A stretch of 63,434 nucleotides of DNA, the filler included, from Octopus bimaculoides (Eukaryota), in assembly GCF_001194135.2 (NCBI RefSeq). It is 6 parts of 6 records of this genome, joined end to end, with 100 filler letters (N's around TTAATTAATTAA, not from the genome) between each part and the next. Parts side by side here need not be neighbours in the genome. Positions count along the whole stretch, not along the records: positions 1 to 4,421 come from NC_068996.1; positions 4,522 to 14,940 come from NC_068984.1; positions 15,041 to 24,634 come from NC_068993.1; positions 24,735 to 30,945 come from NC_068990.1; positions 31,046 to 39,228 come from NC_068994.1; positions 39,329 to 63,434 come from NC_068991.1. One strand, written 5' to 3'. The notes under the pieces are model-generated. The model worked only from the letters and a program-made list of their open reading frames with translations, was not told where the DNA came from and did not search any database. This document shows positions 897 to 57,232 of the stretch, in pieces (within the stretch, counting starts at the first letter, position 1; each line of letters opens with the position of its first letter). Made by a program: the position numbers and the translations under genes.

Positions 897-936
897 GATA
901 TGATATTTCGGAATAAAGATTCTTTCTTCAGATATC
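897..936 (-). ncRNA. Minimal type I hammerhead ribozyme motif (HHR-1)
   Basis: Minus strand reads GATAT-CTGAAGA-A-AGAAT-CTTT-ATTCC-GAAA-TAT-C-ATATC: 5-bp helix I, canonical core, helix II with a basal A:C mismatch, palindromic ATAT helix III, AUC cleavage triplet. Confidence 0.75.
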
Positions 937-1467
937 CCTAGGAATTAATGGAGTTGCTGCTATAATCGGTTTTCCAAAGGCTTATATATATATATACATA
1001 TATATATATATACATATATATATATNNNNNNNNNNNNNNNNNNNNNNNNNNNNNNNNNNNNNNNNNNNNNNNNNNNNNNNNNNNNNNNNNNNNNNNNNNN
1101 NNNNNNNNNNNNNNNNNNNNNNNNNNNNNNNNNNNNNNNNNNNNNNNNNNNNNNNNNNNNNNNNNNNNNNNNNNNNNNNNNNNNNNNNNNNNNNNNNNNN
1201 NNNNNNNNNNNNNNNNNNNNNNNNNNNNNNNNNNNNNNNNNNNNNNNNNNNNNNNNNNNNNNNNNNNNNNNNNNNNNNNNNNNNGGCTTTTATATATATA
1301 TATATATATATGGCTTCTTGGAGCTAATTCACGGCAGCTTTCGTCCTAATTTTGGGACTGCCATGTTGGCTTGGCGATAACTATTAATTTCCAGTACCGC
1401 TGCCGTAGTCTCCTTTAGAGAGACTTAGAAATATTAATAACTCTATATATATATATATATATATATA

Positions 1468-1607
1468 CAACGAGCTTCTTTCAGTTTTCGTCTATAAAAT
1501 CCACTCACAAGGTACTGGTCAGCCTGAAGTTATAATAGAATTACTTCCTCAAAGTGCCACGCAGTGGGACCGAACCCGGAACCATGTGGTTGGTAAGAAA
1601 CCTTCTT
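1468..1607 (-). mobile_element. SINE family A, tRNA-like head half
   Basis: Matches the head of the full copy at 6506-6946 in reverse complement. Confidence 0.8.
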
Positions 1608-1616
1608 ATAACTATC

Positions 1617-1785
1617 AAAGCGACAGAATCGTTACAGTACCGGACAAAAAGGTTTGCAACATAGTTCAAATTTCGCTGAGGTTGATTTTGCTTTAGATAC
1701 TTACTATTTCATCCTCTCAAAGTCAATAAAATAAACATCAGTTGAGCACTACGTTTGATGTAATCGATTTGCCTCCGCTCACCTC
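1617..1785 (+). mobile_element. SINE family B, diverged
   Basis: cagaatcgtta ... agttcaaatttcgctgaggttgattttgc ... gatgtaatcgat, homologous to the copy at 51131. Confidence 0.6.
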
Positions 1786-3543
1786 TGTTAACTGTTGTTG
1801 TTGTTGTTGTTGCATTATTTAGTTACGCCTCAGTACTGATCCACCAAAACTACCTATCACCAAAGACGTTCCAGCCGAGATCATCTCATCTTTCATTTCA
1901 AAGAATATTTTTATTTGACTTTTAGAATACTATTGCGTATGATTGTTGTTTAGTCCAAGGTCGGTCCAGACATAGCTCCCTATTACCGGTATGACTAATA
2001 GAGTTCCAGCAGGGAACAATCCCGTCTTTTAGTCATAGTGTATATAGGACTACATTATTTAATGTATACCATCGGAGTTAGAATTAGTTGCTAGAGTTGT
2101 TGCCATTTAGCAGCAGATCTGTATTGACCCAGCAGAGATTTGGTCAAAGATCTTCTAGCTATCACGACCATCACGACCTTTTTGTGTATCTAAGATTACA
2201 TTGGTGAATCTACCCTCCCTTTGCTTAGGACTCTAGTATGTGATTTGCAGGAAATTTGACTGTTAATTTTAGCATGGTTGTGAGAACGCGGAGGAGGAGG
2301 AGGGGAGGGCGAGGGCGAGGGCGAGGAGGAGGAGGGCGACGAGGAGGAGGGCGACGAGGAGGAGGGCGACGAGGAGGNNNNNNNNNNNNNNNNNNNNNNN
2401 NNNNNNNNNNNNNNNNNNNNNNNNNNNNNNNNNNNNNNNNNNNNNNNNNNNNNNNNNNNNNNNNNNNNNNNNNNNNNNNNNNNNNNNNNNNNNNNNNNNN
2501 NNNNNNNNNNNNNNNNNNNNNNNNNNNNNNNNNNNNNNNNNNNNNNNNNNNNNNNNNNNNNNNNNNNNNNNNNNNNNNNNNNNNNNNNNNNNNNNNNNNN
2601 NNNNNNNNNNNNNNNNNNNNNNNNNNNNNNNNNNNNNNNNNNNNNNNNNNNNNNNNNNNNNNNNNNNNNNNNNNNNNNNNNNNNNNNNNNNNNNNNNNNN
2701 NNNNNNNNNNNNNNNNNNNNNNNNNNNNNNNNNNNNNNNNNNNNNNNNNNNNNNNNNNNNNNNNNNNNNNNNNNNNNNNNNNNNNNNNNNNNNNNNNNNN
2801 NNNNNNNNNNNNNNNNNNNNNNNNNNNNNNNNNNNNNNNNNNNNNNNNNNNNNNNNNNNNNNNNNNNNNNNNNNNNNNNNNNNNNNNNNNNNNNNNNNNN
2901 NNNNNNNNNNNNNNNNNNNNNNNNNNNNNNNNNNNNNNNNNNNNNNNNNNNNNNNNNNNNNNNNNNNNNNNNNNNNNNNNNNNNNNNNNNNNNNNNNNNN
3001 NNNNNGAGGAGGAGGAGGAGGAGGATGGCAAGGCGGAGGAGGATGGCGAGGAGGAGGAAGAGGAGGAAGAGGAGGAGAAATTGATAGATAGATACATACA
3101 TACATACATACATACATACATACATACTTACATACATAGATCGTTGTGTAGACACACCGAAGCATACCAGACTTATTATACAACCTAAATAAGTATGGGT
3201 GGATCGATTTCTTCGATTAAAACCCTTCAAAGACGGTGTCTTAGCACGGCTTCGGTCCAAGATATTGTGTATGTATATTTACATATATAAGTGTATATAT
3301 ACATTGGCTGCCTACCGTGAAATATAAAGAACTTTTTTCAATTTATCGTTTTAAGGAAAGCCATTACAAATTGCATCTGTAATGAGCAATGCTTCAATCG
3401 AACGTTGTAAATATAATCAAAATATTATTGTATATTTAAAATTGTAAATATTTAATCGATACAGCTACTTCACTCTTTTATGTTTGTCTGTCCTTGTTCG
3501 TCCCCTCTTTGTAATGCCTTTATGGCAAATATTTATGAAATAA

Positions 3544-54900: not shown

Positions 54901-55241
54901 GGTGAAGGCACATGGCTCAGTGGTTAGAGCGTTGGGCTCACAGTCATGAGGTAGTGAGTTCAATTCCCAGACTGGGCTGTGTGCTGTGTTCTTGAGCAAT
55001 GCACTTTATTTCACATTGCTCCAGTTCACTCAGCTGTAGAAATGAGTTGTGATGTCACTGGTGCCAAGCTGTATTGGCCCCTTTGCCTTTCCCTTGGATA
55101 ACACTGGTGGCATGGAGAGGAGAGGCTGGTATGCATGCATGGGTGACATCTGGTCTTCCATAAACAACCTTGCCTGGATTTGGAGGGTAACTTTCTAAGT
55201 GCAATCCCATGGTTATTCATGACTGAAGCGGGACCTTTACC
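54901..55241 (+). mobile_element. tRNA-derived SINE family D, full length
   Basis: A box TGGCTCAGTGG, B box GAGTTCAATTCCC, then non-tRNA body. Confidence 0.85.
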
Positions 55242-55760
55242 ATTTACATCACAAAATAACAACATCATTGTCATCATTGTCATCATTGTCAACTCCATCA
55301 TTGTCATCTTCATCATCATTATTTAACGTCCTTTTTCCAAACTGGTATGGGTTGGATGGTTTGACAGGATCTGGCATACTGCAGGGCTGCATCAAGCTTC
55401 AAATATCAGCTTTGGCATGGTTTGTGTGATTGGATGCCCTTCCTAATGCTGACTGCTTTACAGAGTGTACTGCATGTCTTTTTGAGGGGTTTTGTGTTGG
55501 TTTTTTTTTGTTACTTTTTGTGCCACCAGCCTGTGTGAGGTCACCAAGTAACATGTAAAACTGAAAGAGAACAAGGAAAACCCTGTTCTTTTTCTGTCTT
55601 GAAAGAGTCTTTTTGGAGTCTTTATGCCAGGTTTTGAAAGGCTGATGCATGATAGAGATCTCTTGCTAAAGTGAAGATATATGGCTATCCCACTGTTTAC
55701 TGTTAAATTAAACTAAAGTAAAAAAAAGAAGAAAAACCAAAAAGCTAACCGACATATAGA

Positions 55761-56100
55761 AGGACCCCCTTTAGTCATGAACGACCATGGGATTGCACCT
55801 AGAAAGTTCACCTCTGAAGTACAAGTCTGGGCAAGATTGTTTATGGAAGATCAGATGTCACCCATGCATGCATACCAGCCTCCCCTCTCCATGCCATTGA
55901 TGTTATCCAAGGGAAAAGCAAAGGCCGATACATCTTGGCACCAGTGATGCAGCAACTCATTTCTACAGCTGAGTGAACAGGAGCAACATGAAATAAAGTG
56001 TCTTGTTTAAGAACACAATATAGAACCCAGTCTGGAAACTGAACTCACTACCTCATGATTGTGAGTCCAATGCTTGAACCACTGAGCCATGCACTTTCAC
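55761..56100 (-). mobile_element. tRNA-derived SINE family D, full length, inverted
   Basis: Collinear reverse complement of 54901-55241. Confidence 0.85.
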
Positions 56101-57115
56101 ATGTATACTATCAAGTCCTGTGTATACTATCTGTAGAAAAGATGGAATACCTTTGATCATCGATCAACAACAGCAACAACAGCAACAGCAGAGCCAGGGT
56201 TTTGAACCTATGCCCTTTGGCTTAAAAGTCAAGCACAGCGTCCTACAAGTTTTGGTTTCATAGACCTGTGGAGGTCTGCTAACTTTGTTTGTGAGATATG
56301 GGAAATGAAAATTTGTTTGAGAGAAATTCCCACAGGGGCAGATATATGAAAGGCCTATATTTTTCTTCTTAATGCAATTTATTTTATATGATTTAGCCAA
56401 TCAATATTAATTATTATTGATTTTTTTTTTCTTTTCAGATTTCAACAGTTTATTATTATATACAGTGGAATATATTTTGATGTTGGGTGAATTAGTTTTA
56501 TGTTTTCTCCTTTATCTGTATCTCTAAAAGAATTAAGTTGGAATTCTCTCAAATCACATTGTGTAAAATAGCTTCAGAGAAAGAGCGAGATCTATAGCAA
56601 TAGGGAACATCCTGAAGTGGAAATAGTGTGGAGGTGGGGAGGGCGGGGAGTTATAAAAAGATTGAGAAATATTGATACAATACAATGATGATACTAATTA
56701 TTGTTGTCACACATAATGATTTAAGAAGAATAGAGTGATATCAAGTATTTAAATAGAGAAAAATAAAGCAGAGAACAAAATGCTTTCAACTTTTATAAGT
56801 GAATGTTATATTTGAAAAGGTAATTACAAATAATATTTTTTAAATGGAATGTAAATATTTAATAAATCACTAAGCTTGAGAAAACAAGGAAAAAACTATA
56901 CACAAAGAATTTATATACATATACATATATATATATAAGACAGAGTGAGAGAGGCATACATATATGTTTATATGTACTTATGTATATGTGTACACACACA
57001 CACACACACACACACACACACATATATATATATATATATATATATATATATATATAGATAGATAGATAGATAGATAGATAGATAGATAGATAGATAGATA
57101 GATAGATATTGATTT

Positions 57116-57232
57116 GGCTCTGAAGAAGATATTATTGTGATGGTTTTTCCTCATATTTTCAGTTGATCAATTGATTGACTGATAAAATTGAACCATGAAC
57201 ACCCAAATGGATATCTGAAACAGCTGTAAGCC
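57116..57232 (+). ncRNA. Type I hammerhead ribozyme with intact core and long helix II (HHR-4)
   Basis: GGCT-CTGAAGA-AGATAT-[78 nt]-ATATCT-GAAA-CAGCTG-T-A-AGCC; palindromic ACAGCTGT helix III, GUA triplet. Confidence 0.8.

Follow-up and report, generated by a model that had tools for sequence, protein, structure and literature searches.

Minimal hammerhead motifs of the Penelope-like element kind in Octopus bimaculoides, with a high-copy family that carries U at core position 6

The stretch of Octopus bimaculoides DNA analysed here (63,434 nucleotides, referred to below as the window) contains four near-complete motifs with the shape of a type I hammerhead, at 897, 42257, 52051 and 57116. Judging from their anatomy, they are probably the 3' terminal-repeat ends of several families of Penelope-like elements (PLEs), inserted as truncated single copies of which most are likely inert today. 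What is likely to be new is a set of octopus families of this known minimal hammerhead kind, one of which (that of 42257) carries U6 throughout. PLEs are abundant in octopus, and O. vulgaris has 31 recently active families. Octopus joins a long list of animals with PLE minimal hammerheads, an expected addition, and the U6 family is the one useful lead of the analysis.

Hammerhead motifs in the window

All four motifs follow the type I order (helix I, CUGANGA, helix II, GAAA, UH, helix I). An earlier note on this DNA had described them as near-complete hammerheads of distinct families with a self-complementary helix III, and this description holds. The helix III palindromes are AUAU (897), ACGU (42257 and 52051) and ACAGCUGU (57116), a palindrome being a requirement of the search descriptor and hence present in four of four. 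Sequence comparison within the window reveals no mutual relatedness, so that the motifs come from unrelated repeats, and a full second copy of any of them is absent from the window. The exact CUGANGA core is found in all except 42257 (U6), a helix I of 4-5 bp in all except 52051, an unpaired base between 9 and 10.1 in all except 57116, and a permissive base (A, C or U) at position 17 in all except 52051 (G). The G10.1-C11.1 pair is present in two, 42257 and 52051. None of the four copies satisfies the full published consensus for minimal hammerheads (min-HHRs), and 57116 is the only one without a broken core base or pair. The A after A9 that had been noted as a common feature is indeed present in all four, but 57116 has it paired with U11.1, leaving no extra base.

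The motif at 897..936 (minus strand, C17) has a helix I of 5 bp, an intact core and the extra A, together with an A.C mismatch at 10.1-11.1 in helix II; (TA)n begins 47 nt upstream. It is likely a decayed copy. The motif at 52051..52095 (minus strand) is decayed: the core, the extra A, the first pair of helix II and the palindrome are intact, but helix I is down to 1 bp, helix II contains an A.C mismatch and position 17 is G. The motif at 57116..57233 (plus strand) begins 8 nt past a (GATA)n tract and combines an intact core with an 8-nt palindromic helix III, A17 and a helix I of 4 bp. Its helix II opens with A10.1-U11.1 and leads to a structured loop II of about 80 nt. With no extra base, a palindromic loop and A17, this is the build of a Marsupenaeus shrimp PLE motif, but with a loop II far longer than in published PLE min-HHRs (PMC4209133).

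The chance level was determined with 400 local dinucleotide shuffles. A loose hammerhead descriptor gives no enrichment (7 observed against a mean of 4.7, with 78/400 shuffles reaching 7), and the folding z-scores of the four motifs as monomers, from +1.1 to -2.05, are unremarkable to modest. Both results, and the failure of the three partial motifs discussed below, are what one would expect if the motifs had arisen by chance, the genome being rich in AT and in repeats. The strict tiers, defined post hoc with the hits already known, do not: a helix I of at least 4 bp is observed 3 times against 0.14 expected, a perfect core followed by A 3 times against 0.09, and either of these 4 times against 0.22, each count being attained in 0/400 shuffles. 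Moreover, helix I, palindrome, extra A and permissive base 17 co-occur although no single tier requires them jointly, and the motif of 42257 is the best-preserved portion of its family. For the four near-complete motifs we regard chance as largely refuted and give it very little credence.

A wider scan, allowing up to 2 core mismatches with unbroken helices, returned four matches: 42257, 57116, and two non-palindromic ones at 34026 and 44137 that were taken as chance matches, without a control. An Rfam scan of the window gave no hammerhead among the 150 of 242 matches listed, all of which were microRNA models on microsatellites; Rfam scans focused on two of the motifs likewise gave no hammerhead, with 2 and 1 chance matches.

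Partial motifs and genomic context

The three partial hammerheads that had also been claimed, at 1312, 14464 and 43134, turned out to be weak, two of them folding as plain hairpins. The motif at 1312, belonging to an insert of about 130 bp with (TA)n on both sides (1313..1444, minus strand), shows GAAA after a short stem, but the 5' core is missing; it folds as a hairpin (z -1.65) and was rejected. The one at 14464 was rejected as well: it lacks GAAA, and the core-like heptamer of its 5' arm is paired into the stem of a strong imperfect hairpin (14457..14505, minus strand, z -4.0). At 43134..43205 (plus strand) a long helix II is followed by GAAA and the 5' core is damaged; with two core defects, no palindrome and no helix I, it is a possible old hammerhead relic, indistinguishable from chance.

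Four of the seven motifs, including three of the four near-complete ones, have an (AT)n or (GATA)n tract no more than 60 nt away, compared with 5.4% of control segments. The claim that several motifs sit beside such tracts is correct to that extent; it does not apply to 52051 and 43134, whose nearest tracts are 335 and 802 nt away. Six-frame translation of the window yielded 910 peptides (702 not low-complexity), and a scan of 146 of them (the 140 longest and 6 chosen) found no GIY-YIG family or PLE domain. This agrees with the observation that no coding partner is nearby; the proposed checks for linked Penelope RT/GIY-YIG ORFs and for tandem copies both came out negative within the window. 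The host context includes a protocadherin exon (38375..39226, plus strand) matching an Octopus bimaculoides protein with 100% identity and 99% query coverage.

The high-copy family of 42257

Copies were compared for one family of the four, that of 42257, the other three being examined in the window only. The element is an insert of about 150 bp (42167..42317, minus strand) with (TA)n on both sides, and its minimal hammerhead motif occupies 42257..42293 (minus strand). Helix I has 5 bp and helix II 4 bp, the extra A is present, and base 42285 places U in position 6 instead of A. The canonical cleavage point falls between 42262 and 42261; position 17 is C, with U17 in 19% of the DNA depth. In one DNA run (X1), 7,797 contigs match the element, indicating thousands of copies, so this is a family and not a single-copy sequence. 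It is also found in RNA, with 2,877 and 2,262 matching reads in two runs. Scanning JGI metagenomes with a motif for the family gave 0 matches.

Depth is near zero to the left of 42154, where loose ends (38 contigs, 188 + 155 reads) continue into flanks of varied (TA)n/(CA)n sequence. Across copies, the family thus has its 3' end next to TA tracts. On the upstream side, reads are cut at 42305-42345. The proposal that the families target microsatellites gains from this 3' end, and as a bias of PLEs it was already in print: for Neptune, Naiad and Chlamys PLEs, Craig et al. (2021, PMC8557442) describe an insertion preference for (TA)n or (CA)n. The (TA)n association and, in canonical clades, a hammerhead near the 3' end are shared with these elements. 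Alternatively, the (TA)n might be the element's own tail rather than its target.

Counting variants of at least 5% in the DNA run, none of the 32 positions that are paired or belong to the core is variable, whereas 11 of the 90 positions of the 3' flank are (post hoc, one-sided p 0.03); with all 37 motif positions the contrast, 2/37 against 11/90, is not significant (p 0.21). Compensatory changes across copies are absent from the 29 variant rows, and at 5% the DNA run shows no variation in the helices. In the RNA, depth is flat over the predicted cut site and read ends do not pile up there, a weak test with 5,139 ordinary RNA-seq reads. Those reads (2,877 + 2,262) contain no back-joints or circles either, although small circles may be lost from ordinary RNA-seq. 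No joints between copies are listed in four runs; in run X21, two reads link two copies through a 39-letter microsatellite spacer.

Origin of the motifs

Much of the anatomy is familiar. The min-HHRs of PLE pseudo-LTRs have an extra base at 9/10.1 and a palindromic 15.2-16.2 helix III, several families occur per genome, mostly as lone motifs tied to truncated PLEs, and cleavage as a dimer was published in 2014 (Cervera and De la Pena 2014, PMC4209133). All of this is already published. The octopus motifs resemble these metazoan examples in being type I, with a helix I of 4-5 bp, an extra base and a palindromic helix III, and in forming unrelated families of mostly lone copies. The earlier note's reading of them as a Penelope signature is borne out by minimal motifs in unrelated repeats; as a signature it is not novel (PMC4209133, PMC8557442).

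The agreement with the published consensus layout favors a PLE origin. Against it, the metazoan min-HHRs belong to PLEs, whereas the window has no PLE ORF and no family was seen linked to one. If the PLE reading is correct, published PLE biology suggests that a reverse transcriptase/GIY-YIG protein encoded elsewhere would nick (TA)n-rich DNA and priming would occur on the RNA 3' end, about 90 nt downstream of the hammerhead. Reverse transcription stopping early would then leave a stub of 130-250 bp in which the cleavage site is contained and still uncut. Helix III cannot close in a lone copy, and cutting would occur only as a dimer of the same family.

Non-LTR retrozymes (Cervera and De la Pena 2020, PMC7229834; Li et al. 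2026, bioRxiv 10.64898/2026.07.22.740005) are also short non-coding repeats with type I motifs; their tandem units would give multimers that the hammerheads cut into circles for re-insertion. The unit size is comparable, dispersed monomers occur in retrozyme families, for which descent from PLE terminal repeats has been argued (same two sources), and the two X21 reads do join two copies. What defines retrozymes, however, is that their units stand in tandem and that they give rise to circular RNAs, with canonical hammerheads in PMC7229834, while the octopus motifs are single copies of the minimal PLE type with no circle signal. A canonical type I hammerhead has a helix I of about 6 bp and loop-loop contacts; here helix I reaches 4-5 bp at best. 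With no tandem copy in the window, and neither joints nor an end pile-up at the flat-depth cut site in the RNA reads (again a weak test), the retrozyme-like reading in the earlier note loses its footing, and we consider it improbable.

The same note had raised the possibility of mixed dimers between the two ACGU families, 42257 and 52051, with cleavage in trans. Their palindromes do pair over 4/4 bp. In the double hammerhead topology as derived here, each strand crosses helix III into the junction of its partner, so a mixed dimer fails because helix I must pair across partners too: the undamaged 52051 5' strand and 42257 3' strand form 0/5 helix I pairs and the opposite junction 1 contiguous pair, compared with 5 and 5 in a 42257 homodimer. 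The 42257 core also carries U6, and we see almost no prospect of such trans cleavage. For the homodimer, nearest-neighbour energies are -10.9 kcal/mol for the double hammerhead and -22.1 kcal/mol for other folds; the model ignores core contacts, and these values were thus counted neither for nor against.

The U at core position 6

No variant appears at 42285 (5% threshold) in any of the four runs, and U6 is likewise kept in a loose-end consensus whose loop II is longer. It is family-wide and not the private decay of one copy. Among 56 published motifs, none is from a cephalopod and all cores have A6 (PMC4209133); no precedent for a family-wide U6 in PLE hammerheads was found in the literature that was searched. 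On inspection, an alternative register that keeps A6 by means of U3 breaks helix I and inserts two bases before GAAA, and was rejected. The closest natural change at this position is the A6C hammerhead of phage Bcep176 (Perreault et al. 2011, PMC3088659; PMC7151607), which has low activity in magnesium. That is a single phage motif with C6 and measured activity, whereas 42257 has U6 in a high-copy animal family known from sequence. Position-6 changes reduce hammerhead activity (A6C; PMC3088659, PMC7151607), and single CUGA mutants have low activity in magnesium. By this comparison U6 would likely cripple cutting, and the abundant 42257 family is predicted to cleave little or not at all in magnesium, in which case it has likely spread without needing the cut.

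A refinement compatible with the PLE origin would make 42257 a dedicated short, SINE-like parasite of PLEs, its fold retained because the PLE protein uses it for recognition or priming, and its catalysis lost through U6. Non-autonomous derivatives are known for Chlamys PLEs, and Naiads, with no canonical hammerheads and mere remnants in cephalopods, spread nonetheless (PMC8557442); for telomeric PLEs it has been suggested that the hammerhead fold at the 3' end has a role other than cleavage. The constancy of U6, including the loose-end consensus with the longer loop II, and a flank more variable than core and helix positions are in line with this, as is a rod in which U6 permits the 5' core to pair with the 3' core (-8.0 kcal/mol). 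The A6 version, however, gives a similar rod (-8.7 kcal/mol), low variation may reflect merely a few master copies, with reads cut at 42305-42345 the copies could be tails left by truncation of a long element, and A6 relatives less than 80% alike would escape read placement. The parasite is possible, if on the unlikely side. More doubtful is an active natural variant, dependent for instance on manganese or a protein cofactor, by which the family would still self-cleave as a dimer. The remainder of the motif is intact, the only common cut-site variant is the tolerated C17-to-U, and A6C cleaves well in manganese (PMC3088659, PMC7151607); yet the magnesium activity of CUGA mutants is low, even canonical minimal PLE hammerheads are poor dimer cleavers (PMC4209133), and no cut is visible in the RNA reads. 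Only tentatively do we suggest that a family of thousands of copies fixed U6 in a hammerhead that is preserved elsewhere and still spread into TA microsatellites, its fold being either selected as a non-catalytic signal for the PLE RT or a new active core variant. If the fold is kept as a non-catalytic signal, PLE hammerheads, whose role is stated as unclear (PMC8557442), serve some purpose besides cutting. The 42257 family has been very successful with a core that is predicted to be crippled, which makes it a natural experiment on the need for cutting in spread.

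Anatomy of the motifs

The window spans 63,434 bases and holds 5,538 N in 21 gaps, and 121 tandem-repeat rows. A descriptor scan of it with a palindromic helix III as a built-in requirement gave 10 rows, including the four near-complete minimal hammerhead motifs of the earlier note, named here by their start positions. The 897 motif (897-936, minus strand) has a helix I of 5 bp, an exact core, an extra A, an A.C mismatch at 10.1-11.1 and C17. The 42257 motif (42257-42293, minus strand) has a helix I of 5 bp, the extra A, G10.1-C11.1 and C17, with U rather than the canonical A at core position 6 (U6). 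The 52051 motif (52051-52095, minus strand) has an exact core, the extra A and G10.1-C11.1, with G17 and a helix I of one pair only; in the 57116 motif (57116-57233, plus strand) the core is likewise exact and helix I measures 4 bp. The A said to follow A9 directly is found in all four, but in 57116 it pairs with U11.1 and is therefore not an extra base. None of the four fits the complete published consensus, and only 57116 is without a broken core base or pair. Within its loop II, a 36-base near-palindrome (57153-57188) forms a long hairpin, which may belong to the family or have been inserted afterwards.

The three partial motifs proposed earlier fail as hammerheads on core, GAAA, palindrome or folding. 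At 1312 the 5' core is missing and the sequence forms a hairpin (z -1.65); at 43134 the core is damaged, and both palindrome and helix I are absent. At 14464 there is no GAAA, and the heptamer that resembles a core is base-paired within a plain hairpin. This strong, imperfect hairpin (14457-14505; z -4.0, 0 of 200 shuffles) adjoins an (AGT)n tract and might represent the terminus of a further mobile element.

The 42257 family

Among the four families, the read analysis across copies covers that of 42257, an insert of about 150 bp. Reads were mapped to 42140-42345 at 80% likeness, and differences were listed from 5%. The DNA run X1 contributes 7,797 of 32.6 million contigs, the RNA runs X21 and X23 2,877 of 12.9 million and 2,262 of 11.5 million reads, respectively, and X18 (RNA by guess) 146 contigs. 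The element is a high-copy family rather than single-copy, the one family checked in this way, although read depth does not equal copy number. Coverage drops to almost nothing left of 42154, where loose ends (38 contigs, 188 and 155 reads) carry varied (TA)n/(CA)n flanks, with an agreement of 0.61-0.67 based on 24 of 240 loose-end rows; thus, the family end abuts TA tracts family-wide. Some 90 nt separate this end from the motif, which is upstream of it, and the TA tract is either an insertion target or the element's own tail. Upstream, the reach of the family reads stops at 42305-42345, where they are cut.

No variant at 42285 (core position 6) appears among the 29 variant rows in any of the four runs at the 5% threshold, and a loose-end consensus with a loop II one base longer also keeps U6 (19 contigs, 97 reads). 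This makes U6 the norm of the family (A6 below 5%) instead of private decay, unless relatives with A6 fall below 80% likeness. Only two motif positions vary by at least 5% in X1: base 17, C to U in 19% of the depth with U also permissive, and a single base of loop II, which differs in 96% of the depth and is private to the window copy.

Mates in the RNA runs fall evenly on the two strands. Coverage stays level through the predicted cut, and neither joints nor end pile-ups are listed on the element, ordinary RNA-seq being a weak test for cutting or circles. Core variants are commoner in these runs (13-22% at 42264 and 42270), and several family variants common in RNA are rare in DNA. X21 and X23 also share one loose end at 42274 (271 and 367 reads, respectively), in which the 5' core is bypassed. 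The RNA-enriched core variants and the shared end are likely one well-expressed transcript with a decayed copy.

Origin of the motifs

Most probably, the four motifs are 3' terminal-repeat stubs of several families of Penelope-like elements (PLEs); they now stand alone, and most are damaged. The PLE enzyme that copies such stubs into TA-rich DNA would be encoded elsewhere, and the copied stub would span the uncut cleavage site; we infer this origin and priming, and that the four motifs are inactive. The family-wide U6 core is the one lead that stands out. The literature searched mentioned neither octopus PLE hammerheads nor a natural hammerhead family with A6U; Lunse et al., whose title points to dimer cleavage by numerous small hammerhead variants of PLEs, may cover either point.

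Cervera and De la Pena (2014, PMC4209133) give PLE motifs an extra base, G10.1-C11.1 and a palindromic helix III, with many families per genome, mostly single motifs tied to truncated PLEs, and poor cleavage of the motifs as dimers. The 56 motifs listed there include two molluscs and no cephalopod; 57116 resembles a shrimp motif among them in build, whereas the 42257 family differs from all 56, which have A6. Craig et al. (2021, PMC8557442) describe PLEs as biased to microsatellites, with non-autonomous derivatives, and the role of their hammerheads as unclear. PLEs are abundant in octopus (PMC13282606, PMC8967140), with no mention of ribozymes in the available main texts, and 235 Rfam hammerhead loci are given for a squid genome (PMC6962438). 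The sources used also include PMC6765202 and PMC6431247. The four motifs are a known kind, the PLE minimal hammerhead, in a host not previously listed.

Chance matching was gauged by shuffling dinucleotides 400 times in blocks of 300 nt. The loose descriptor shows no enrichment (7 observed versus a mean of 4.7, reached by 78 shuffles). However, no shuffle attains the observed count when helix I is at least 4 bp (3 versus 0.14), when the core is perfect with a following A (3 versus 0.09) or with either strict tier (4 versus 0.22). These tiers were chosen after the hits were known, so the p-values are optimistic; the margin is nevertheless wide, and a chance origin is very unlikely. Retrozymes are also unlikely, if less so: published descriptions make them tandem units (PMC7229834; bioRxiv 10.64898/2026.07.22.740005), whereas among the matches listed the window has no full second copy of any of the seven elements, and no joints are listed for the RNA reads. 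The "retrozyme-like families" of the earlier note thus lose ground.

Compatible with PLE stubs, and a tentative possibility, is that the 42257 family is non-autonomous in the true sense and keeps the fold as a signal. None of the 32 constrained positions varies in X1, against 11 (by at least 5%) in the 90-nt 3' flank (Fisher's test, p 0.03), but over all 37 motif positions (2 varying) p is 0.21, and the 29 variant rows include no compensatory base-pair change. Selection on the fold is thus suggested rather than established, the result depending on the positions counted. An active U6 core is rather doubtful. Accounts of a natural A6C hammerhead describe slow cleavage in magnesium and a rescue with manganese (PMC3088659, PMC7151607), and low activity is given for CUGA mutants (PMC9901934).

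The two ACGU families, 42257 and 52051, had been thought able to heterodimerise. In a double hammerhead, each strand would cross the shared helix III into its partner's junction, and helix I would therefore also form between partners, a derivation of our own from the topology; an elongated helix III alone is described for hammerhead dimers in the available texts (PMC4209133, PMC6155905). In complexes built computationally, helix I pairs per junction number 5 and 5 in the homodimers of 42257 and 897 and 4 and 4 in that of 57116, but 1 and 0 for 42257 with 52051, the 0 coming from two undamaged strands. The common ACGU palindrome is insufficient in these models, and cleavage as a mixed dimer is extremely unlikely.

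Surroundings in the window

The seven elements, near-complete and partial, show no mutual relationship in the window comparison, as expected of distinct families. Their best partial matches, among those listed, are of 23 and 35 bases (3209-3231 and 16229-16263, to the 43134 and 57116 elements), possibly scraps of further copies. An (AT)n or (GATA)n tract occurs no more than 60 nt from four of the seven motifs, and from three of the four near-complete ones, compared with 5.4% for control segments (post hoc binomial p of 3e-4 and 6e-4). Neither 52051 nor 43134 has such a tract within 60 nt, and the proposed microsatellite association holds to that extent. (TA)n flanks both sides of the insert holding 42257 (42167-42317) and of the insert at 1312 (1313-1444). 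The 897 and 1312 inserts are opposed across a (TA)n tract and N gap (978-1320), which both join by a similar short GC-containing end, and may be one composite insertion.

Six-frame translation gave 910 peptides of at least 35 aa, of which 146 (the 140 longest of higher complexity and 6 chosen) were scanned with Pfam. Matches were to cadherin, RVT_1, zf-RVT and a few weak chance rows; GIY-YIG was absent from these 146, in line with the claim of no coding partner nearby. The broken reverse-transcriptase fragments (18625-19065, 20616-20867 and 34762-36119, minus strand; 23288-23503 and 36483-36992, plus strand) are probably several LINE relics, read as LINE-type because zf-RVT partners accompany them; the closest is >5 kb from any near-complete motif. 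A peptide at 15042-15290 (minus strand), without a Pfam match, presumably resembles the end of a mariner transposase. The cadherin matches mark a protocadherin exon (38375-39226, plus strand) running into an N gap. Across 99% of the exon, identity is 100% to a protein attributed by its source to Octopus bimaculoides; it is 96% to an O. vulgaris protocadherin, and many octopus and argonaut paralogues are among the matches. This marks the host as an octopus.

SINE-like interspersed repeats form 49 segments covering 9,042 bases of the window, up to 12 overlapping matches deep. An identical 53 bases on each side of an N gap (21305-21561) is probably an assembly overlap, and a 27-base unit, no simple microsatellite, is repeated 3.2 times at 54271-54357.
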